Positions 5,904-34,553 of a DNA stretch of 35,435 nt are shown in pieces. Both the position numbers and the translations under genes were made by a program. Position 1 is the first letter of the stretch; each line of letters opens with the position of its first letter. The notes beneath the pieces are model-generated. The model ran no database searches, was not told the DNA's origin, and saw nothing but the letters and a program-made list of their open reading frames with translations. Origin of the DNA: a virus; the UHGV virus genome UHGV-0135847; one strand, given 5' to 3'.

Positions 5904-6293
5904 ATGATTGACGCTCATGACTTCACAAGATGGGTGCGCACACAGGACACCCGTCTGGCTCCCGTTCTTCAGGGGTTATTTGATCTCTACATCCGTGGTC
6001 GTGACAACAGAGCACGCACCACAAAACCGGAGAATGCAGACACCCTTTATTTCACAGTAGACGACTGCTACCGCGTGGATTTCACACCACACGGACTGGC
6101 GTTGCACTGCCTGACACCGCACGGCGAATCACTGCTGGCGTATTACGACTCCCCGGCCTCCGTATTTGCAGCAATGCTGGCGCATCGCACTGCTGGCGGG
6201 TGTGCCTCGCTGAGTGAATACACCGCTGAATTTAACCGCCTTTCCGTCCTCTTCTCGCAGGAGTGGCAGCGCGTGACGGGATACCAGCCATGA
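5904..6293 (+). CDS. Hypothetical protein, translationally coupled to replication gene A
   Basis: 129-aa ORF; stop TGA overlaps ATG of gene A at 6290 (ATGA). Confidence 0.5.
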   Translation: MIDAHDFTRWVRTQDTRLAPVLQGLFDLYIRGRDNRARTTKPENADTLYFTVDDCYRVDFTPHGLALHCLTPHGESLLAYYDSPASVFAAMLAHRTAGGCASLSEYTAEFNRLSVLFSQEWQRVTGYQP

Positions 6294-9130
6294 GTGCGTT
6301 TGCATGGAGCTGGAATGAACCACGACCAGCTATTGATCCGGCCAGATTTACGGAGCGCAGGCAGGAAACTGAAACCGACCTGCAACGCGCCATCCGTTAC
6401 TACCTTGAGGCGGACAAAAGGGCACAGGAAGAACAGGAAGCGAAGGAAGAAGCCTTTTTCGCACAATCCGCCATGGGTAAAAAACTCATGGCATCCCTTG
6501 AGGAAGCCGGACAGCGTGAAAAGCTGGCACAGAGCATCATCAGTAAGCGCCGGGCAACAGAACAAGACCCGGTAGCCCGTGCCTTTGCCACACTGAAGGC
6601 GCTTCCCGTTTATCTGCGAGAACCTCTGAGCCGCCACCTCTCTTTCCTGCGCAAGAAGCAGGAAGCCGATCGTCAGAAAGGCAAAAAGAGCTGGCAGGCG
6701 GAACGCTATACACGCGGAACCCTGCGCAAAATATTCGAACGTCTGGATCGCACTGACGGGCGCTGGCTGACACCTGGTTATCGCTCCCTTGCCGGACGCG
6801 AACGCCTGGACGATTTGCTTTACCTGCCGCAGCTCAACAAACACCAGATACAGACGCTGGCCACCATGACGGCGGCGATGTTCAGCAGCACCTTCGAAAA
6901 ACTCTGCGATGGCTTTGGCGCGACCGATGGCGAACTGACCATGGATGTAACGCTGAAGGCGTATCAGATGCTGGCCCGCATGGCGTTACACCTGCACATC
7001 ATGCCTCCACATTATGACGCACTGACAACAGATAAAGACCGGAGGAACGAACCGGACACGGAGCTGCTGCCGGGCGCAATCCTTCGCCTGACCTGTACGG
7101 AATGGTGGAAACGCAAACTGTGGCTGTTACGTTGCGAGTGGAGAGAAGAACAACTCCGCGCCGCCTGTCTGGTTTCCAGAAAAACATCGCCCTATCTGAG
7201 CCAGGACGCATTAAGCGAGTTTCGCGCACAGCGCGAGAAAACACGCGATTTCCTGAAAAGTTTCATGCTGGAAAACGAAGATGGGTTCACGATTGATCTC
7301 GAGACAGTGTATTACGCGGGAGTAAGTAACCCGGTTCACCGTAAGGCAGAAATGATGGCCACCATGAAGGGGCTGGAACTTCTGGCCGAAGCCCGTGGCG
7401 ACAAAGCGGTGTTTCTGACTGTCACCTGCCCGTCAAAATACCACGCCACAACAGAGAACGGTCATCCGAATCCCAAATGGAACGGGGCCACCATGCGCGA
7501 CTCCAGCGATTACCTGGTTAACACGTTTTTTGCGGCGGTCCGCAAGAAACTGAACCGCGACGGCCTGCGCTGGTATGGCATCCGCACGGTGGAGCCTCAC
7601 CATGACGGCACCGTGCACTGGCATATGATGGTCTTTGCTCATCCGGAAGAAATCGACACTATTGTGTCCCACACCCGCGATATTGCCATTCAGGAAGATC
7701 GTCACGAGCTGGGTGATGATATTACCCCACGCTTTAAGGCGGAGTACGTCGACGGCTCAAAAGGCACACCGACCAGCTACATCGCCACCTACATCGGGAA
7801 AAACCTGGACAGCCGTGCCGTGGATGGCATCGACCCGAAAACGGGCAAGCCACGCGTTGACCACGAAACCGGAAAATCAATGGCCGAGAGCGTGGAACGC
7901 GCCATCGGCTGGGCGCGCCTTCACCGGGTCCGCCAGTTCCAGTTCTTTGGCATCCCCTCCCGCCAGGTATGGCGTGAACTGCGCCGCCTTGCCAGCCAGA
8001 TGGCACGCAACCCGGAAGGCCCGCAACGGCTGAAGGATGACGCAATGGATGCGGTTCTTGCCGCCGCTGATGCCGGATGTTTTGCCACCTACATAGAGAA
8101 ACAGGGCGGCGTACTTGTTCCACGCAAAGACTACCTGATTCGCACCGCCTACGACCTCGCCGATGAGCTGAACGATTACGGCGAACAGAGCGTACAGATT
8201 TACGGGATCTGGTCACCACTCATCGGGGAATCCTCCCGTGTGTGCACGCATCCGGATAACTGGAAGCTGGTAAGACGCAAACCGGAAGCGGAAGACAGTG
8301 CCCGCGAAAATGGTTTTGACCTTCAGGGCGGCCCTGCCGCCCCTTGGACTCGTGGCAATAACTGTCCCCGTGTACAGGAAACGGACAACAACGGGACAGA
8401 ACAGCCGGAAGAACGGCCAGCAACGTGGCCGCAGCTCCCTGACGGCGTTGAAGTGAACGAATGGATGCGCTCACTGAAACGGCACGAACGCCGGGCGCTG
8501 ATGCGTTCGCTTCGTGACAAACAGGCAAAAAACAGCAGTGATGAAATGCAGAGCTGGACACAGAGCCGCAAACAGCAGCGGCCTTTGCCTGATAACCACG
8601 AATTACTCGCTAAAGAATGGCGGGAGTCTGCTGAATCTCTCGGCCTGCATATCGGTGAACAACAGATGCAGCACCTGTTACGGGGCGGCAGTCTGTACGT
8701 TGACGGCAGCATCATTGCACCGCAGGGATTTGAAATTGTACGCAAACCGGATACCCGCCCGGACAGCCGAATCACGCAGCTCTGGCAGCGCCTGAGCCGT
8801 AATCATGGCGTAAGCAGCACGGAGATCCGCCATAACCCGGTCGCCAGCTATCTGGCACAGCTGGGGGCATCAGACCCTGAAGCCGCCGCACGCCTGGCAT
8901 CCACACTTCAGCAGGACCAGAACACCATGAAAACACCCGTTACCGTGCTTTCTGACATGCTGCGCGCCATCCGCGACGCAGAGCACGCACAGAGAATCAG
9001 TGAGACCACTGAACGCGCCAGCCGCAAAGCAGACCTGCTGCGGGGTGGCCTGACCAGCGGAAACAAAAAACAGACAGAAACGGGACTCACGAATCCCGTA
9101 AATGACCAAAAAACGCGCAGCGATATATGA
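6290..9130 (+). CDS. A: Replication initiation protein A (P2 gpA-type HUH rolling-circle initiator endonuclease)
   Basis: Motifs GIRTVEPHHDGTVHWHMMVF (HUH) and YIATYIGKNLD (catalytic Tyr region) typical of P2/186 A proteins; start taken at ATG 6290 rather than upstream GTG 6263. Confidence 0.9.
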   Translation: MSAFAWSWNEPRPAIDPARFTERRQETETDLQRAIRYYLEADKRAQEEQEAKEEAFFAQSAMGKKLMASLEEAGQREKLAQSIISKRRATEQDPVARAFATLKALPVYLREPLSRHLSFLRKKQEADRQKGKKSWQAERYTRGTLRKIFERLDRTDGRWLTPGYRSLAGRERLDDLLYLPQLNKHQIQTLATMTAAMFSSTFEKLCDGFGATDGELTMDVTLKAYQMLARMALHLHIMPPHYDALTTDKDRRNEPDTELLPGAILRLTCTEWWKRKLWLLRCEWREEQLRAACLVSRKTSPYLSQDALSEFRAQREKTRDFLKSFMLENEDGFTIDLETVYYAGVSNPVHRKAEMMATMKGLELLAEARGDKAVFLTVTCPSKYHATTENGHPNPKWNGATMRDSSDYLVNTFFAAVRKKLNRDGLRWYGIRTVEPHHDGTVHWHMMVFAHPEEIDTIVSHTRDIAIQEDRHELGDDITPRFKAEYVDGSKGTPTSYIATYIGKNLDSRAVDGIDPKTGKPRVDHETGKSMAESVERAIGWARLHRVRQFQFFGIPSRQVWRELRRLASQMARNPEGPQRLKDDAMDAVLAAADAGCFATYIEKQGGVLVPRKDYLIRTAYDLADELNDYGEQSVQIYGIWSPLIGESSRVCTHPDNWKLVRRKPEAEDSARENGFDLQGGPAAPWTRGNNCPRVQETDNNGTEQPEERPATWPQLPDGVEVNEWMRSLKRHERRALMRSLRDKQAKNSSDEMQSWTQSRKQQRPLPDNHELLAKEWRESAESLGLHIGEQQMQHLLRGGSLYVDGSIIAPQGFEIVRKPDTRPDSRITQLWQRLSRNHGVSSTEIRHNPVASYLAQLGASDPEAAARLASTLQQDQNTMKTPVTVLSDMLRAIRDAEHAQRISETTERASRKADLLRGGLTSGNKKQTETGLTNPVNDQKTRSDI

Positions 9131-9206: not shown

Positions 9207-10166
9207 ATGAAAATTTGTATCGACGACGGCTCCACCAACATCAAGCTGGCATGGACTGAGAACGGCGAACGCCGCAACGCCATCAGCCCGAACAGCTTCA
9301 AGTCGGAATGGTCTGCGCCGTTCGGTGGCACGCAGCCCGCGAACTACATGCTTGATGGCGTGCGCTATGGTTTTGATCCGGTCAGCGATCGCTTTGTCCA
9401 GACGACCGACACGCAATACCAGTACAGCGATGTGAATGTCATTGCCATTCATCACGCGCTGGTCAAATCAGGCATCACGCCACAGGAGGTGGATGTGGTT
9501 GTCACCCTGCCACTGAGCGAGTATTTCGACACAAACGCACAGCCGGACATGGCCAACATAAACCGCAAAAAAGCAAACGTTATGCGCCCGGTGGAATACC
9601 AGAACGGCGAAGCATTCACTATCCGTAATGTACGGGTTATGCCTGAATCCATTCCGGCTGGCTTTAAAGCACTGGCTGACATGAGTCCGTTTGAATCCCT
9701 GCTGATTGTGGATTTAGGTGGAACCACGCTGGATGTGGCAAAGGTTCAGGGACAACTGGCAGGTATCAGCCAGGTGTTTTGCGATCCACACGTAGGCGTT
9801 TCCCTGATGGCCGATGCAGTACTGTCGGTGATGGCCACTAACGGTATGCGTACCAGTCACCACATCGCCAATACCATTATCGAACATCGCCATGATGAAG
9901 CCTGGCTGCGCCAGCACATCTACAATGACGCGCATTACGCCAGCCTGATGGCGGTTATTCGTGAAAAGGAAGAAACACTGAAACAACGCGTGATCCGCGC
10001 GCTGGCGGGTTTTTCGGGTTACGGGCGGGTGATGGTTGTCGGTGGCGGGGCGGAGATTGTGGCACCCGCTATCCGCGAAGCCTGCGGAGTTAATGCGATT
10101 TTCATCGCGGACGGGGTGCCACAGTTTGCTCTGGTTAATGGGCTGTACGCAATGGACAAGGAGTAA
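9207..10166 (+). CDS. parM: ParM/StbA-like actin-type segregation ATPase
   Basis: N-terminus MKICIDDGSTNIKLAW and motifs VMPESIPAG, LIVDLGGTTLD, VVGGGAE closely follow plasmid R1 ParM (StbA) as recalled. Confidence 0.8.
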   Translation: MKICIDDGSTNIKLAWTENGERRNAISPNSFKSEWSAPFGGTQPANYMLDGVRYGFDPVSDRFVQTTDTQYQYSDVNVIAIHHALVKSGITPQEVDVVVTLPLSEYFDTNAQPDMANINRKKANVMRPVEYQNGEAFTIRNVRVMPESIPAGFKALADMSPFESLLIVDLGGTTLDVAKVQGQLAGISQVFCDPHVGVSLMADAVLSVMATNGMRTSHHIANTIIEHRHDEAWLRQHIYNDAHYASLMAVIREKEETLKQRVIRALAGFSGYGRVMVVGGGAEIVAPAIREACGVNAIFIADGVPQFALVNGLYAMDKE

Positions 10167-10170
10167 ACCA

Positions 10171-10482
10171 ATGACGACACCAACCAGACGAATAAGTTTC
10201 TATCTGAAGCCCGCCGCCGTCAAGAACGAAGGCGAAGCATGCGCCTGGCTGGACAGCCTTACACCAGAAGCCCGTAAAAACGGCCAACGCGTGGCTTTTC
10301 TGGCCGGGCTGGCGCTTCTGAAAATGAATCCGGCAGAGGCTTACCGACTGGCAGCATGGGCTGACGATGAGGCGTTATCAGTGACACAAACCAGGACAGA
10401 ACGCCTCCTGTCACAGCCAGTACCAACCGCACAGATAACCAGTCAGATGGCCGGAAATATCAGGGCGTTATTTCCTGAATAA
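10171..10482 (+). CDS. parR: ParR/StbB-like centromere-binding adaptor
   Basis: 103 aa starting 5 nt after parM; pattern RRISFYLKP...WLDSL...AFLAGLALL...ALFPE matches R1 ParR layout as recalled; ORF track lists it inside a longer out-of-context frame (10036..10482). Confidence 0.7.
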   Translation: MTTPTRRISFYLKPAAVKNEGEACAWLDSLTPEARKNGQRVAFLAGLALLKMNPAEAYRLAAWADDEALSVTQTRTERLLSQPVPTAQITSQMAGNIRALFPE

Positions 10483-10545
10483 CACAACGTCAGGGCGAGT
10501 TCGCCCTGATCTCCATCTCAGAACATAAACAAGAAGAGCGACTTA

Positions 10546-10929
10546 ATGAGCAAAATCAACTATCAGGCATTACGTGAACGTTATTCACCTGCACCAGTAC
10601 CAAAATGCCCTATTTGCGGCGAAGAAATGTCAATTCAGCGAATATCTGGAGCACAGGTTGTTTATGGCTGCTCCGGTTATGGTGATGATGGAGATTTCAA
10701 AATTGGTCGAACTCTTGCCGACGAACATTATGAAAAATCACGCGTAACAGTGTTGGATGTCGGGGATCCTGAAGTATTGGCGCTACTTGATTGGCTGGAA
10801 ACCAAAGACAACCGAATCGCTGAACTGGAAAAAATCGCCACTGACTATGCACTTAAATTCCAGAAAGCACAGGACGCATTAAAGTACGCCGCTTTGCTGC
10901 ATAGCAGGACAGCGCAGCTACAAGACTAA
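10546..10929 (+). CDS. Hypothetical protein with N-terminal Cys-rich (CPICG...YGC) zinc-ribbon-like segment and C-terminal coiled-coil-like tail
   Basis: 127-aa ORF; Cys pattern read from translation; function unknown. Confidence 0.5.
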   Translation: MSKINYQALRERYSPAPVPKCPICGEEMSIQRISGAQVVYGCSGYGDDGDFKIGRTLADEHYEKSRVTVLDVGDPEVLALLDWLETKDNRIAELEKIATDYALKFQKAQDALKYAALLHSRTAQLQD

Positions 10930-11019
10930 CTTAAAGCGGAAGATTAATACATGGTGAGTCGGGGTAATTTGTTTTTATCCCGACAAATAAACAAAAAAGT
11001 GGACTATCTCTGTAGTATC

Positions 11020-11550
11020 TTATTCAGCATCGTCTCGTGCAGTCTGTGCATACGTCACAACAACGCCCAATGCATTAGTTTTCTTTTCAACATAGATAAT
11101 ATTGTCATATTCATAGTTACCATACGGATAGCAAATAAGAATATTTTTATGCAGATCGGGATCATCAACAAACGCTCCGGAACAGCTTCTTGAACTACCG
11201 GATGTATACTCATACGGTGCAACATATGATGATGTTAGTCCTGGTAAAAAATAAGTCACCATCATAAGAGGGATAATCAGGAATATCCCTGTAAGAATGC
11301 AAGAGCCAGCATAAACCTTCAGGTATTCCGACAGTCCTTTCCAGCCACTTTGCTTCACTACCCCCCTCTTCACCAGAAACAAGGAGAAGAAAAAGGACAT
11401 ACCCATACTACACAAGATGTAATAATTGGATATACGCGAATTAAGATATGTAATCCTGTAGATATCTGCCCTCCACCAGTAAAAGAGGAAAATAATCCCT
11501 AGCACTGAAACAGTCATGCAAATCAAATAAGGATATGAATCTTTCTTCAT
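11020..11550 (-). CDS. AT-rich cargo gene encoding a polytopic inner-membrane protein of unknown function
   Basis: 176 aa; three hydrophobic segments (approx. residues 10-30, 42-60, 82-105) then a soluble Tyr/Gly-rich C-terminal domain; DNA visibly AT-rich versus flanking phage genes; opposite strand to neighbours. Confidence 0.6.
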   Translation of the reverse strand: MKKDSYPYLICMTVSVLGIIFLFYWWRADIYRITYLNSRISNYYILCSMGMSFFFSLFLVKRGVVKQSGWKGLSEYLKVYAGSCILTGIFLIIPLMMVTYFLPGLTSSYVAPYEYTSGSSRSCSGAFVDDPDLHKNILICYPYGNYEYDNIIYVEKKTNALGVVVTYAQTARDDAE

Positions 11551-12080
11551 GTCTTGCGCTCATTAAAATTTCCCTGCTGCGAACAAATTTACCATCCGTT
11601 TTTTGCGCAGAAAACAGCACGATGCACACTGCACGATAGTGCACAAATTTGCACAATTTTTTTGAACGACTTTTTACCCTTCCGGCCCGCATGGCGGCTG
11701 GATCCGTCAAGGATCCGTGCGTGCACAAAAAAACGCGTTTTTTCTGCGCGCAGGTGACGGGGGAACAGCCCGCGTTTCAGGGGGTAAATAGCATCCCCTG
11801 AACGATGTCGCAGCGACACAACAGAATGGCTGTATTTCTCACACTGAGCGTGAAAAAGACGTGAGGGCTTTTGATTTGATGGGGTGAAAGGTAAGGCCGT
11901 CAAAATCGCACTGAGACGGCGAGAACATGCAGTCAACGCGGTGGGATTGCGTAAGAGTCTGACTGTCGATGATGGCAATAAGCAGGAAAGCGTCGTGAAA
12001 TTATCTGACTGATACAGGAGCTGGAGAGTCGGGGCATAAATTTTTTATGCCCCGGCGAAGCAGCAGACAAGCGAAGCGCG

Positions 12081-13127
12081 TCAGGATGTGGGCTGGGTGT
12101 CTAACAGTGCGTAAGGGTTAAAGCGGATCACCTCTTCGCCAAGCCAGTCATTGATGTGCTTCATGGCCTCCATGACGGGCATCAGCTCGTTAATTGCGTA
12201 AACCCGCGCGGCCTTCTCCACATCACCAAACGCGCTTTTTTCGCCCGGCATCGCCCCCATCAGTTGCGGCGGAACGCGGTGCGCAGCCAGCACATCATCA
12301 CGGGATGCCGCCTTAACATTCATGAACTCATCCTTTGCGGTGATCTGCTGGAACGGCAAAATTTGCACCCCCTCTTTGCCCCCGTTGGGCGCATGGATGA
12401 GCACGTTTTTAAACGCACCACCACCACGCGCACCCTGTAACGTTTCTTTCAGGGAGTCCATGCTTTCGCGGTTTACCTGCGCTGCACCGATGTAGATGAT
12501 GCACCCGGCGTGGGATCCATTGTCGTAATACAGTTTTCTGAACATGTCCGCCGAATGAGACAGGCTGGCCGAGAGTAATGCGCCAAGATATTCCGGCATA
12601 CCGTAAATTTCCTGGTTAATGTCCGGATTCATCAGGTGGCACACTTTGCCAGGGCGAAACTGAAACGCGTCCTTGCCATCCTGCACATACCACCATGATT
12701 CAAGATCGCTTCCGCGTCGCATGTATTTCGCCAGTGCGTGCCGTAATTTAAGCGGTTCGCCGAGCATATTGCTTCGAAGCTCAAGGAATGCGTTACCGAA
12801 CACAAACCAGTCCAGCGCCAGCGCCGAGAAATCCTGCCGGGAAAGCAGCGGGTGCGGGATGTAGCAACCGAGTAATACATTGCGCTTAAAGTAAAGCGCA
12901 GACTGATGCCAGGACGTTTGCCGGGCTGCTCTTGCCAGACCGTACCAGTCCACCGGGGTTTCATACCACCGCCCGTTATCAGCACAGTACATATTGTCCA
13001 GCAGGTCATGCCCGGTCAGGCGATAAGGACCATCAAATGTGAATGCACTGAGCGATGATTCTTTCCTGAGCGCATCAGCGAGATCAATGCGTGAACTCAT
13101 GCGCACTTTTTTATTTTTTCTGCTCAT
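12081..13127 (-). CDS. Q: Portal protein (P2 gpQ-type)
   Basis: 348 aa, position and orientation immediately beside the terminase ATPase gene, size typical of P2 Q. Confidence 0.9.
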   Translation of the reverse strand: MSRKNKKVRMSSRIDLADALRKESSLSAFTFDGPYRLTGHDLLDNMYCADNGRWYETPVDWYGLARAARQTSWHQSALYFKRNVLLGCYIPHPLLSRQDFSALALDWFVFGNAFLELRSNMLGEPLKLRHALAKYMRRGSDLESWWYVQDGKDAFQFRPGKVCHLMNPDINQEIYGMPEYLGALLSASLSHSADMFRKLYYDNGSHAGCIIYIGAAQVNRESMDSLKETLQGARGGGAFKNVLIHAPNGGKEGVQILPFQQITAKDEFMNVKAASRDDVLAAHRVPPQLMGAMPGEKSAFGDVEKAARVYAINELMPVMEAMKHINDWLGEEVIRFNPYALLDTQPTS

Positions 13128-14878
13128 CAGAACTCCATAACCGTGAAACGCTCGTTTTCTCCTTCGCCGCCAATCGGTTCGTTAATGACAGCAAGCATGG
13201 TTGCCCACGCAAGGTCGCCGTGGCTGATCCCCCTCGCGCGGTCCGTTTCGTAAGTGATAAAGCCGCCCGGTGTTTTCACCTTACGCACGGCGTTAAAGGC
13301 CGCGACCAGCTCGCGTTCGGCGCGATCGTATTCCCACCGCCCGGCACGCATTATTTGCAGCATTTTCAGTACCAGCGACCGTTTTGATGACAGCGTGAAG
13401 GTGTACGGAATAGCAGCAGGGAAAAACCGTTTCACTATCTGATAAACAGCCTCCCCGTTCCCGCCCGTCACATCAATGCCGATGTGTTCCACGTTGTAGC
13501 GATACGTGAACTCTTCAATGACTCTGGCCTGTTCTTCAAACTCCAGCCCCTGAACGCGTCGCGTCTCCACCGTTCGAAAACGGCCACCAGGAACAGCCGG
13601 AGGAACCACCACGGACACAGCGCCGCTGTCGCCGTTGCCACTGCTGCCGTTTGCGTCATACCCAATCCATACCGGACGATTCCCCATCGGGCGGGGAGCA
13701 AAAGGTTTCCAGTCTTTCCAGTCGTCGTATCCGTCAACACCGCAGCCAATCAGGATATTCAGGTTAAATGCCGATTCCCCTTCGCGAACAAACTCACACA
13801 TATAGAGATTGAGGAACTCGTCTTCGGTGTTTTCATCACGGATTTCGTCAATATCGGTGTGTTTCCAGCCGTGATTAACCACATCTTCCAGCGTGACAAT
13901 TTGCCGCCACGTCCGGTCAGGGCAGATAAGCCCGTTATGCAGCGTTTTCCAGTCCACAGAAAAACGCTGGCGTTTATGCGAGGCCTTTTTCTCGTTCCAG
14001 CGGTCGCCGTTCCAGTAGGCGTATGCCTCGTGCGTTTCGGTGGATGGCGTGGAGAAGTAGGTGCGCCGCAGTCCGCTGAGGGTTGCCATAGCGCCAGCTA
14101 CCTTGCGCAGTTCAGCAAAGCGACTGACCCAGAAAAATTCATCAAAATAAAAATTGCCCGTATAGGACTGTGCCGACGCAGCAGAAGTGCCGAGAAAATG
14201 CAGCTCTGCGCCGTTGGAGAGGATGATTTTATCGCCCCCTTTCAGCTCCACATCAACTTCAGCCGCGGCCTTCTGAATAATGCTTTTAAACTGGAACGCC
14301 TGACGACGCGACGCAGACAAAAAAATCTGGTTACGCTGGTAAGGTTGCGCCACATCGTCACGCAGCGCCATCAGCAGAGCTTCCTGTGCAAAATACCAGG
14401 TCGCCCCAATCTGTCGGGATTTCAGGATCATCCTGTTACGTATCCCGGCTTCCCTGCAAAGGGTCAGGGAGTCAAACCAGCCCCGCTGATGCCACTCCAG
14501 CCTGCTGATGATTTTTTCCCGCAGTGCGGCAATCTGTTCCGGCGTGAAATGATTTTTGAGTTTTTTCGCCCGGCCTTTCTTTCCTGTGACCGTCGCATCC
14601 GGCTGGCCATCATGCAGTTTTTTAAGCTGCCGGGTCAGCAGGTCTATTTCCTTAAAGTCACCGCCTGTTTTATTCTGTTTTTCAGTAAGCTGGATGAGGC
14701 GCGCATCGATGGACTGCGTGACACGCTGCACGGGTGGCGTTTCATCCCACTGGTCGCGTTTTTTCCACGCATAAATCGTGTTCGGGTTTATTCCCATCAG
14801 ACGTGATATTTCTGCGGGCGGATAACCCTGCCAGTAAAGTTGCCGCGCACGCTGGCGCACAAAAGCGTCCTGAATCAT
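13127..14878 (-). CDS. P: Terminase large (ATPase) subunit (P2 gpP-type)
   Basis: 583 aa; N-terminal MIQDAFVRQRARQLYWQGYPPAEISRLMGINPNTIYAWKKRDQWDE HTH-like start typical of gpP; stop overlaps Q start by 1 nt. Confidence 0.9.
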   Translation of the reverse strand: MIQDAFVRQRARQLYWQGYPPAEISRLMGINPNTIYAWKKRDQWDETPPVQRVTQSIDARLIQLTEKQNKTGGDFKEIDLLTRQLKKLHDGQPDATVTGKKGRAKKLKNHFTPEQIAALREKIISRLEWHQRGWFDSLTLCREAGIRNRMILKSRQIGATWYFAQEALLMALRDDVAQPYQRNQIFLSASRRQAFQFKSIIQKAAAEVDVELKGGDKIILSNGAELHFLGTSAASAQSYTGNFYFDEFFWVSRFAELRKVAGAMATLSGLRRTYFSTPSTETHEAYAYWNGDRWNEKKASHKRQRFSVDWKTLHNGLICPDRTWRQIVTLEDVVNHGWKHTDIDEIRDENTEDEFLNLYMCEFVREGESAFNLNILIGCGVDGYDDWKDWKPFAPRPMGNRPVWIGYDANGSSGNGDSGAVSVVVPPAVPGGRFRTVETRRVQGLEFEEQARVIEEFTYRYNVEHIGIDVTGGNGEAVYQIVKRFFPAAIPYTFTLSSKRSLVLKMLQIMRAGRWEYDRAERELVAAFNAVRKVKTPGGFITYETDRARGISHGDLAWATMLAVINEPIGGEGENERFTVMEF

Positions 14879-31747: not shown

Positions 31748-31904
31748 AGCTTCAGCCCCTTGTATCCGTTAAATGATTCGGCAACAATCATCACCCACCA
31801 CGCGCGTAATCTCACCCCTGCGCCGTTCTCCCGACCCGGCGACAACAAAAAGCAGTAACCCCCTCTGCACGCACATGCGACCATGCCGCACAGGGAGGGA
31901 ACAG

Positions 31905-33014
31905 ATGACCGACACCACCATGCAATTGCTCAGTCAGGGCACAGACCCCGTGAAAATGCCAGATTTTGATATTCTCGCGGAGGGGAAAACGCTGTCAGGC
32001 GTGGCAGAGCGCCTGATGAGCCTGTCACTGACCGACAACCGGGGATTTGAGGCGGACCAGCTCACCATCACGCTGGATGATGCGGATGGTCAGTTGCAGC
32101 TACCGCCACGGGGCGCGCGCCTGACGGTTCTCATTGGCTGGAAAGGAGAACCGCTGACAGAAAAAGGCACTTACATTGTTGATGAAATCGCTCACGAAGG
32201 ACCGCCGGACAGGCTGACTGTTTCAGCCAGAAGCGCAGATTTTCGGGATGAATTTAACGTTAAACGTGAAGTGTCCTGGCATGATGTGACCGTTGAGCGC
32301 GTGGTATCCGCCATCGCTCATCGGTACGGCCTGAAACCGCAAATCAGCGAAATGCTGATGGATATCGAAATCGACCACGCCGACCAGACCGAAGAAAGCG
32401 ACATGTCCTTCCTCACGCGCATGGCGGAAATGCTGGGCGCAATCACCACGGTAAAAAGCGGTAACCTGTTATTCATCATGCCCGGCGGTGGCGTGAACGC
32501 ACAGGGCCAGCCGTTGCCCTCGTTCGCCATCACACGCAGCAGCGGCGATCGCCATCAGTTCCGCATTGCTGACCGCGAAGCGTATACGGGGGTACGCGCT
32601 TACTGGCTTGATCTTAATTACGGGAAAAAGAAAAAAGTCAGCGTGAAACGCCGCAAACCGCCAAAACCCAAAAAGGAGAAAAGCAGCAGCCGTGAAGGTG
32701 ATTATATGGAAGGCGCAGAAGGCAATGTGTTTGTGTTACGCAAGACTTATCAGAACGAGCAGGCAGCAAGACGCGCAGCGGCGGCAAAGTGGCAGCAGCT
32801 ACAACGCGGAGCCGCATCATTTTCCATCACGCTGGCGCGTGGACGTGCAGAACTCTACCCCGAAATGCATGGCACGGTAACAGGATTTAAAAGCGAGATT
32901 GATAATCAGGACTGGATTATTGCAAAAGCCGAGCACACTATTGATGACAGTGGCTTTACCACACAGCTTGAGCTTGAAGCAAAAATCCCGGAATGGATAG
33001 CGGAAACAGAATGA
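31905..33014 (+). CDS. D: Tail protein D (late control gene D product)
   Basis: Start ATG 31905 after GGGAGGGA RBS; ~369 aa; divergent from FI. Confidence 0.85.
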   Translation: MTDTTMQLLSQGTDPVKMPDFDILAEGKTLSGVAERLMSLSLTDNRGFEADQLTITLDDADGQLQLPPRGARLTVLIGWKGEPLTEKGTYIVDEIAHEGPPDRLTVSARSADFRDEFNVKREVSWHDVTVERVVSAIAHRYGLKPQISEMLMDIEIDHADQTEESDMSFLTRMAEMLGAITTVKSGNLLFIMPGGGVNAQGQPLPSFAITRSSGDRHQFRIADREAYTGVRAYWLDLNYGKKKKVSVKRRKPPKPKKEKSSSREGDYMEGAEGNVFVLRKTYQNEQAARRAAAAKWQQLQRGAASFSITLARGRAELYPEMHGTVTGFKSEIDNQDWIIAKAEHTIDDSGFTTQLELEAKIPEWIAETE

Positions 33015-33413: not shown

Positions 33414-34553
33414 GTGGGAAACAATAAAGTGAAATTAGGAAGAAATGATAAGTGCTGGTGTAATTCAGGACTTAAGTATAAAAAGTGCCATCTTGGTCGA
33501 GACCGTGAAACTCCGGTATCCAAAGCCGAGGCACTGAAATTTTCAAAGTCTCTCTCGCAGAGAAAGGCATGTTATGCGCCAGCATCCATGCACGAAGATT
33601 GTGATAAACGCATCGTTCAGGCGCATACGATATCTAAGAGCAGTAGCCTTAAGGCGATCGCCGACTCCAGCAATCACGTCATGGGGGTGATAATGAACTT
33701 AGCAAGCCTGATGAGAAACAACGGAAAATGGCTTCCCGAGAAGATCGGTATCAATCAGGCATCCACTTTTACAGGATTTTGTGCAGTTCATGACAGAATC
33801 TTGTTTTCATGCCTAGAGAACGAAAAATTTACAGGCACGGACGAGCAGTGCTTTGCCTTAATGTTTCGTTCATTGTCTAAAGAAATTTACGCCAAAGAAG
33901 GGGGAGTGCTATCTTCCGATTTTGCTAAAAATGCCGATAAAGGAAAGCTACAAGTTGAACAGTATTATATTCAGAAATTAATCGACCAGCACCAAAGTGG
34001 CTTAAATGCAGCAATAATTGAATTAAATAATCTTAAAACTAGCCTCGACCGCATCCTACTTAGCAGGCAATTTTCAGAAATTGAAAGTGTTATCTTCACT
34101 TTTGCAGAGCCTTTACCAATTGTAGTTTCGTCAATTCTTTCACCGGAGAGGGATTTCGATGGGACCAAAATTCAGGATTTGAGCGATCTTACAGTGTCGG
34201 CGGAACAAGTATGTTTCAATGCTTTTTCCTGCGGAGGTAAGGGATATGTAGTGTTCAGTTGGCTGAGAACTTCAACAATTATCAGACGTTTTATACGGAC
34301 ACTAATTAAGATCCCGGCTAACAGGATGTTCAATACCCTTCTGTATTTTTTCTTCACAAAGGCCGAAAATACATATTCATCCCCTGAGTGGTGGGACAGG
34401 CTCAGTGATAAACAGCGAGAGAATATCGGCAACATGATTATGTCAGGGGTTGAATTTTTTGGCAGACCTACATCACAGGTTGATCATTCCGTTGATTATA
34501 ACGCCGCTGCACTTGAAGAGATAACATGCAGCAACAACGAAATTTGCAGCTGA
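33414..34553 (+). CDS. AT-rich cargo gene: protein with N-terminal SEC-C zinc-binding motif and ~340-aa uncharacterised domain (start GTG 33414 or GTG 33429)
   Basis: GRNDKCWCNSGLKYKKCH matches the SecA C-terminal SEC-C motif GRNDPCPCGSGKKYKQCH; rest of protein unrecognised; DNA visibly AT-rich. Confidence 0.65.
   Translation: MGNNKVKLGRNDKCWCNSGLKYKKCHLGRDRETPVSKAEALKFSKSLSQRKACYAPASMHEDCDKRIVQAHTISKSSSLKAIADSSNHVMGVIMNLASLMRNNGKWLPEKIGINQASTFTGFCAVHDRILFSCLENEKFTGTDEQCFALMFRSLSKEIYAKEGGVLSSDFAKNADKGKLQVEQYYIQKLIDQHQSGLNAAIIELNNLKTSLDRILLSRQFSEIESVIFTFAEPLPIVVSSILSPERDFDGTKIQDLSDLTVSAEQVCFNAFSCGGKGYVVFSWLRTSTIIRRFIRTLIKIPANRMFNTLLYFFFTKAENTYSSPEWWDRLSDKQRENIGNMIMSGVEFFGRPTSQVDHSVDYNAAALEEITCSNNEICS

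Follow-up and report, generated by a model that had tools for sequence, protein, structure and literature searches.

What is the small membrane-protein gene that stands between the replication gene and the portal and terminase genes of the viral genome UHGV-0135847, and does it act against other phages? The window, by which we mean the whole stretch of 35,435 nucleotides (nt) that was analysed, comprises a whole prophage of the P2 family, P88 type (Xuanwuvirus), and megablast identifies phages P88, Chuche, P884B11, 500465-2 and 520873 as the relatives of the sequence flanking the gene. An initial annotation, made from the letters of the sequence, had described a protein of 176 amino acids (aa) with three transmembrane (TM) segments, encoded at 10930-11560 in the position of the P2 tin/old locus, and had proposed it as a recently acquired abortive-infection or exclusion factor. 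Our analysis indicates that the gene is real, well conserved and common in E. coli. As to function, we tentatively prefer a stand-alone envelope protein, expressed from the prophage, that excludes superinfecting phages at genome entry, a reading to which we give somewhat less than an even chance. The open reading frame (ORF) is intact, and the span first annotated takes in its flanks as well:

11020..11550, minus strand: the 176-aa membrane-protein gene, with an ATG start and an in-frame stop four codons upstream of it

The first question is whether this ORF is a gene at all. Compared with six homologues (from phage 434, Salmonella, Citrobacter and others), the ratio of nonsynonymous to synonymous substitution rates (dN/dS) is 0.10-0.22 over the whole length. 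The first 64 codons are under purifying selection too, the corresponding ratio of proportions of differences (pN/pS) being 0.23-0.26 in the closer comparisons. The ORF is therefore a real, constrained gene and not a chance ORF. That it is a decaying pseudogene or annotation noise might be argued from its record in the databases: RefSeq/PGAP labels the P88-type copy (window 11020-11595; loci L089, L105 and L106) a 'frameshifted' pseudogene in all three genomes checked, and different pipelines call products of 90, 112, 176, 188, 200 and 223 aa. We find this hardly credible, since it is contradicted by the selection analysis, and since the 176-aa frame is intact and most full-length relatives, down to ~25% identity, share the same Met-Lys-Lys/Asn start. 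Because the 176-aa frame, including its first 64 codons, is under purifying selection, the 90-aa PHROG profile and the 112-, 188-, 200- and 223-aa calls are start-codon errors; the 112-aa calls probably stem from an internal AAGAGGGGGGTAGTG, which resembles a ribosome-binding site. The 'frameshift' label is likewise an artefact of a reference protein with the 200-aa lambdoid start call, because that start lies upstream and the N-terminal extension it adds is not conserved. PHROG 1416 (function unknown) does match the protein (1.6e-45 over aa 90-175), but this profile of just 90 positions consists of truncated calls of the same family and carries no functional information. Because of the RefSeq pseudogene label and the disagreement of gene callers over the start, annotated-protein counts understate the family.

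The AT-rich character of the gene holds up under calculation. Its G+C content (GC) is 38.8%, with 40% at third codon positions (GC3), against a GC of 54.8% for the prophage backbone, in which most genes have a GC3 of 58-69% (exceptions are StbB at 53% and the tail fibre at 47%). Relative to backbone windows of the same length the GC of the gene has a z of -4.4, which is in the lowest 1.8% of all windows. The reasoning from composition to recent acquisition, however, was wrong. All homologues examined are 2-14 GC points below their flanks, whatever the host or element, and low GC is therefore a stable trait of the family and no sign of recent acquisition. In four genera the same slot of P2-like prophages is held by orthologues with 55-66% identity and a synonymous divergence (dS) above 1, and dS between clades is saturated (1.2 to >3).

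The positional insight of the initial annotation, on the other hand, was right. The gene does lie in the tin/old position, between the gene A homologue and the portal and terminase genes, and the match to P2 is better than had been stated, extending to the same order and strands. The neighbourhood is as follows:

6263-9130, early strand: homologue of replication gene A (GPA, PF05840)
9207-10166, early strand: ParM partition gene
10171-10482, early strand: StbB partition gene
10483-11627: variable cargo slot (GC 41%), with boundaries from blastn, bounded by backbone common to Chuche and P88
10546-10929, plus strand: Ead/Ea22-like gene of 127 aa (PF13935, 3.3e-29), the last early-strand gene, convergent with the membrane-protein gene
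12081-13127, minus strand: portal gene
13127-14878, minus strand: large terminase gene, with head and tail genes beyond

The membrane-protein gene had been said to be on the opposite strand to its neighbours; this is so for the A-ParM-StbB-Ead side, while portal and terminase are on the same minus strand. The plasmid-type partition genes ParM and StbB (9207-10482) are found here within an integrating P2-like prophage, in agreement with the reported share of ~1/4 of P2-like phages that have such a system.

In the window the cargo slot contains an Ead/Ea22-like fragment and the membrane-protein gene, and its contents differ among the sister phages P88, Chuche, 520873 and P884B11. Ead/Ea22-like genes normally belong to lambdoid phages. 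PGAP labels the one in the window 'missing C-terminus', homology to phage 434 starts exactly at its stop codon (10932), and no such gene accompanies the homologue at the other loci examined, whether P2-like, lambdoid or chromosomal. The fragment is probably a lambdoid-type gene that has been truncated, and no functional partner of the membrane protein. The slot gene of Chuche (L003 3315-4121) has the same strand and the same upstream sequence as the membrane-protein gene of the window, and it matches the PADLOC defence candidate PDC-M04A (2.6e-35). This match, the variability of the slot and the work of Rousset et al. (2022, PMC9122126), in which the gpA-gpQ locus of P2-like prophages is a defence hotspot, bear out the earlier suggestion of a hotspot for anti-phage cargo.

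The same study lists in its Table S5B a 'System #4', a single protein with no Pfam domain and '3 TM', in 470 of 18,150 loci (PMC9122126); the family ranks fourth in frequency among the occupants of the P2-type hotspot. The System #4 representative (MRTVKNYSYPYLTF...SCSGAFVDDPDLQKTIFICYPYGDY...) matches the P0046/L081 clade, and this clade matches the window protein at 1.7e-53 with ~57% identity. Like System #4, the window gene is a single gene in the gpA-gpQ slot of a P2-like prophage, with no Pfam hit at threshold and with three TM segments; it differs from the System #4 copy in its clade and in having ParM/StbB and the Ead-like fragment beside it. The System #4 sequence is absent from the table of cloned systems (PMC9122126), and System #4 appears to have been catalogued without a function attached. 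The gene is thus a member of a hotspot family catalogued already, without characterisation, and it is not surprising to specialists.

Two other prophages show further slot contents beside members of the family. In a P2-like prophage of Klebsiella michiganensis (L093 2281-5623), a 790-aa protein with a weak AAA_16 match and a 279-aa protein are encoded between the portal and the family member; neither matches PADLOC, and the pair may be an uncatalogued two-gene system. In a Salmonella prophage (L077 6919-8767) three Gly/Asn-rich proteins that appear to have signal peptides are also encoded in the slot, together with one of 150 aa that is taken, from its sequence alone, to be like hexapeptide-repeat acetyltransferases.

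How widely is the family distributed, and does its distribution point to phages or to hosts? We compared 80 IMG/VR loci, four genome loci and further loci found via homologous proteins. By blastn the family is present in 999 of 5,426 complete E. coli genomes (~18%), in 77 of them at at least 99% identity and in 918 at ~78%. The exact configuration of the window occurs in 62 E. coli genomes, and ~1,300 match the flanks of the slot. An exhaustive profile search of 1.84 billion representative proteins gave 59 hits, the full-length ones almost all of 166-189 aa, and the source names of all relatives are 'hypothetical', 'membrane' or 'transmembrane protein'. One match of the profile search, the 3,074-aa P0104, was judged not to be a relative; it is a surface-adhesin-like repeat with a short Cys-containing motif.

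The first context in which the family occurs is that of P2-like prophages, where the order of terminase, portal, family gene and GPA and the orientation are constant, from the 99%-identical E. coli clade to clades of Salmonella, Klebsiella and Enterobacter at 55-66% identity. The second is that of lambdoid prophages (~80% identity; phage 434, 2B8, mEp332, the O157:H7 prophage at ybhC and others), in which the copies lie between xis and exo on the opposite strand to the pL operon. The third consists of a few orphans on chromosomes: the Citrobacter copy is flanked by a DUF1294 gene and rstB/tus, that of Cedecea is close to mipA and oppA-like genes, that of Pseudescherichia stands between reductase genes, and another adjoins a sucrose operon. 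A further copy is found on an integrase-bearing island, the family is also found in Shigella sonnei and Salmonella, and a distant member (~28% identity) in Orbus wheelerorum (L096 1-6465) adjoins a Cas13a-Cas1-Cas2 locus and a small helix-turn-helix gene on their downstream side. The lambdoid copy of E. coli O157:H7 Sakai (L107 7910-8512) is ECs_0804 of prophage Sp3; this prophage is defective (its integrase is a pseudogene), so a prophage in decay has kept ECs_0804. The P2-like, lambdoid, island and chromosomal contexts have no conserved neighbour in common. A 56-aa 'membrane protein' upstream in phage 434 was considered as a partner and rejected, being absent from P2-like loci; the ORF overlaps sequence that is non-coding in the P88 backbone.

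Such a distribution could be that of a lysogenic-conversion factor that benefits the host in ways other than defence, the envelope protein altering some process of the periplasm or inner membrane, for example stress tolerance, transport, or resistance to colicins or to contact-dependent or type VI toxins that depend on entry factors of the inner membrane. The orphan homologues fixed at chromosomal loci away from prophages fit this explanation, as does the Sakai copy kept in its defective prophage, and the hotspot carries partition systems and toxins besides defence genes (PMC9122126). Most of the family, however, occurs as cargo of prophages, in slots known to house genes for competition between phages, the Orbus homologue adjoins a Cas13a-Cas1-Cas2 locus, and no domain indicates a particular physiological activity. 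We regard a host benefit of this kind as unlikely, although it deserves to be kept in mind.

If the gene is expressed from the prophage, what would drive it, and how did it come to be shared between P2-like and lambdoid phages? The features that bear on these questions are the following:

10932..11687, minus strand: DNA homology (76%, blastn) with the module of phages 434 and mEp332, taking in the gene, 88 nt downstream and 137 nt upstream
11584..11614, minus strand: the best-conserved upstream block, TTTTCTGCGCAAAAAACGGATGGTAAATTTG, ~35-40 nt ahead of the ATG and a candidate promoter of the extended -10 type
11617..11660, minus strand: a run of GTGCA motifs with starts at 11654, 11644 and 11634, in phase at 10 base pairs (bp), then at 11627 and 11620
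11628..12080, no strand assigned: conserved non-coding backbone from the portal to the cargo slot, 96% identical to Chuche
12030..12054, minus strand: a perfect 11-bp hairpin just past the portal stop (free energy, dG, -26.4 kcal/mol; z -5.2), with no U tract

The upstream block (the TGGTAAATT block) hardly differs between the window, phage 434, mEp332, the prophage of O157 and the Salmonella prophage L077, while the surroundings diverge. Within it lies a candidate extended -10 (TGnTAAATT, with the TG at 11594-11593 and TAAATT at 11591-11586) with a poor -35, and we propose the block, by inference, as a candidate for the gene's own promoter. The adjoining GTGCA run includes the dyad GTGCA-N6-TGCAC. 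P88-like phages keep its motifs whatever gene the slot carries, as Chuche does with a different one, and in the phage 434 copy they are degenerate. At the equivalent position P2 has three ATGCA repeats, in the old promoter region. A regulator or a packaging protein may bind to the run.

The lambdoid module includes ~250 nt of upstream DNA with homology to the backbone of the P88 type, minus an 84-nt segment. This suggests that lambdoid phages received the module, control region included, from a P2-like phage. The 84-nt segment (~11690-11775) is present in all P88-like phages examined and missing from the otherwise homologous lambdoid upstream region. The area has a dyad at 11718-11752 and direct GGATCCGT repeats at 11700-11718, and the segment could hold packaging or terminator signals of the P2 type that were lost after the transfer.

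By synteny with P2, the non-coding backbone at 11628..12080 is expected to contain cos. The best match there to the cos 19-mer of P2/186 is no better than in shuffled sequence; a match of 13/19 at 11753-11771 was rejected as a cos candidate, as it is at chance level and is disrupted in Chuche. Two ORFs upstream of the gene, one of 129 aa at 11589-11978 and one of 95 aa, were also rejected as coding, since an indel relative to Chuche breaks the frame; it measures 7 nt and lies within the 129-aa ORF.

The side of the gene that faces the portal raises another explanation. Terminase and portal precede the gene immediately and share its strand, and the gene might have a role in the phage's own lytic cycle, in which late P-Q transcription would read through across cos and the product would, for example, keep progeny or related phages from injecting into a cell already infected, or aid release. 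The hairpin at 12030-12054 occupies the position of the P2 terminator tQ, and without a U tract termination there may leak. Against such a role, the gene is dispensable, as just 62 of the ~1,300 E. coli genomes that match the flanks have the configuration and viable sister isolates (e.g. Chuche) carry other slot genes. Moreover it is also antisense to the pL operon in lambdoid phages and is found at chromosomal loci with no late operon upstream, and the equivalent P2 genes have their own constitutive promoter. We consider a lytic-cycle role very unlikely.

Turning to the protein itself, hydropathy gives three hydrophobic segments (~aa 7-26, 43-60 and 79-102), and the AlphaFold model has helices at 5-28, 38-61 and 71-101 followed by a five-stranded beta domain, in agreement with the three TM segments first described. 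The C-terminal domain had been called Tyr/Gly-rich; with nine Tyr (12%) and five Gly in the last 74 aa, it is Tyr-rich and not Gly-rich. In the family alignment the N-terminal MKKxSY is conserved, a W-x3-I-x-R-x-TFL motif follows helix 1, and a basic loop with LK at its end precedes helix 3. The C-terminal domain follows LPG..S.Y.A.Y.Y.SGG..SCSGA.V.DP.L...IRIC.P.G...V.KRSN.LG.VV, with Cys140 and Gly162 invariant and Cys123 almost invariant; both cysteines are carried by the beta-barrel at aa ~103-170. This domain has a net charge of -5 and is the most constrained part of the protein between the closest clades (pN/pS 0.14). The N-terminus and loop 2 together have seven Lys/Arg against three in loop 1, and because of this positive-inside count the predicted topology is N-in, C-out, which would place the OB-like (oligonucleotide/oligosaccharide-binding) barrel with its two conserved cysteines in the periplasm. 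Because two conserved cysteines lie in an acidic, extracytoplasmic domain, a Cys123-Cys140 disulfide probably stabilises the barrel. Lipoprotein status was rejected, as there is no lipobox and Cys11 is not conserved.

This anatomy bears on the proposal of abortive infection, according to which the three-helix part would depolarise or permeabilise the inner membrane on sensing infection and so kill the cell. TM proteins of hotspot systems are often suicide effectors (PMC9122126), and the gene is located in such a defence hotspot. Conservation, however, is highest in the extracytoplasmic barrel and not in the helices, and the long-term chromosomal orphans speak against a product that is harmful by itself. 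With the two-component Rex type of abortive infection in mind, no conserved sensor or partner gene was found adjacent in any context, the neighbours being different in each, and there are no matches in PADLOC. An abortive-infection effector is in our judgement quite unlikely, and exclusion is the more plausible of the two proposals.

We return to the exclusion of superinfecting phages at genome entry. In P2-like and lambdoid prophages alike, the gene is oriented against the early lytic operon beside it and keeps its conserved upstream block, an arrangement typical of prophage-expressed morons. We rank envelope exclusion first because the gene has the slot and orientation of phage-competition genes, antisense to the early operon, because it has no partner, because its extracytoplasmic domain is constrained, and because its size and number of TM segments are like those of SieA of phage P22. 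In the mechanism that we envisage, the gene would be a stand-alone lysogenic-conversion gene in the place and orientation of P2 old/tin, and a weak promoter of its own, ~40 nt upstream, would drive its expression; lysogen expression, like the promoter and the anti-phage activity, is something that we infer. The product would reside in the inner membrane with a cytoplasmic N-terminus, three TM helices and a strongly basic cytoplasmic loop, while the acidic OB-like five-stranded barrel of ~75 aa would face the periplasm. There it would block the incoming phage genome from crossing the inner membrane, perhaps by binding to tape-measure or ejection proteins of the invader or to a host inner-membrane entry factor. 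No cell would be killed and no partner protein would be needed.

Several results weigh against this interpretation. Pfam, NCBIfam, PADLOC and PDB sequence searches gave no informative match, either with the single protein or with a 30-member profile, and the defence-model check that accompanied the original proposal came out negative, with zero defence families of PADLOC-DB v2 at E up to 1. Similarities in fold are weak and of a generic kind. A scan of the region for the sigma-70 consensus found no promoter at threshold, and a terminator scan found no clear or canonical terminator for the gene. Comparing the 30-member family profile with P22 SieA by hhalign gave a probability of 0.3%, that is, no detectable homology. 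A literature search found no study of the protein and no phenotype, transcript or localisation data. The non-defence cargo of the P2 hotspot, such as partition genes and toxins (PMC9122126), also counts here, and the orphan copies at ordinary chromosomal loci mean that the protein is kept outside phages, which fits a role in host physiology as well as one in defence. A Foldseek search against viral predicted structures gave no match at E up to 0.001.

Taken together, the data may be read as pointing to a new and widespread class of single-protein envelope defence, in which an inner-membrane anchor would hold out a disulfide-bonded OB-like barrel into the periplasm, and the barrel would capture incoming phage DNA or the tape-measure/ejection conduit just as the genome is transferred. 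The module, with its promoter, would be mobile between P2-like phages, lambdoid phages and chromosomes, and inconsistent start calls and pseudogene flags would have partly hidden it from surveys based on proteins. This fuller picture is possible but doubtful. What is established is that the gene is real and constrained, that its slot, orientation and distribution are as described above, and that it has no homologues in known families. About one in five complete genomes of E. coli carry the family, O157:H7 (ECs_0804) among them, and yet it has no Pfam family or name; this abundance makes the gene a worthwhile target at the bench. If the block of genome entry is true, the gene would be a common and easily transferable determinant of phage host range. 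It would then matter for predicting the outcome of phage therapy, and it would offer a new way of approaching the passage of phage DNA through the inner membrane.

The cargo slot is not the only accessory locus of the prophage. The landmarks at its two ends are:

1-1002: integrase gene
31773-33014: gpD, the end of the run of head and tail genes

An AT-rich accessory locus lies beyond gpD at 33414-34553 and encodes a 379-aa protein with an N-terminal SEC-C motif; its weak matches to E2-like PADLOC models are confined to that motif. At the other end of the prophage, a second AT-rich accessory locus adjoins the integrase gene at 1008-2035 and encodes a DUF2511 protein and a 216-aa protein without family.

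Finally, how does the locus compare with systems that are known? In the P2 reference record the order is P, Q, the terminator tQ, cos, the start of the old-tin mRNA, and then old and tin on the minus strand, convergent with orf91 and A. The order and strands of the window are those of this old/tin layout, the membrane-protein gene being the first gene after the expected cos, reading away from it and converging on the A operon. The old-tin mRNA of P2 starts ~150 nt from cos, its promoter region being ~150-200 nt away, and the old promoter region has short repeats phased at ~10 bp, as in the window. The old-tin genes are non-essential, variable cargo, the same as the contents of the window slot. 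The products differ, however: Old is a soluble ATPase-nuclease of 586 aa and Tin is a soluble protein, and neither is related in sequence or fold to the small membrane protein.

In overall plan the protein resembles the short NfeD-type proteins (B. subtilis YuaF, E. coli YbbJ), which are ~150-175 aa long, begin with TM helices and end in a small OB-fold barrel. The NfeD profile (PF01957) nevertheless finds no match in the window protein at E up to 1, nor in 30 members of the family at E up to 0.01, and no operon partner of the SPFH/stomatin/flotillin type is present at any of the loci examined, whether P2-like, lambdoid, chromosomal or on an island. T4 Imm and Sp, HK97 gp15 and the lactococcal Sie2009 are small, phage-encoded, membrane-anchored exclusion proteins that have an extracytoplasmic part and stop genome entry. 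They differ from the window protein in size, number of TM segments and fold, with no sequence similarity in the libraries searched.

SieA of phage P22 is a prophage-expressed inner-membrane protein of ~163 aa with three TM segments and a proven blocker of DNA injection; it acts alone, has its own promoter and is transcribed against the neighbouring lytic genes (PMC10883804). The SieA motif FxRYPxEAxxFNK (PMC10883804) is absent from the window protein and from the consensus of its family. SieA also differs in being without a C-terminal beta domain and in its location, which in P22-like prophages is between genes 16 and 9. By prediction the window protein is nonetheless like SieA in having ~160-176 aa and three TM helices.

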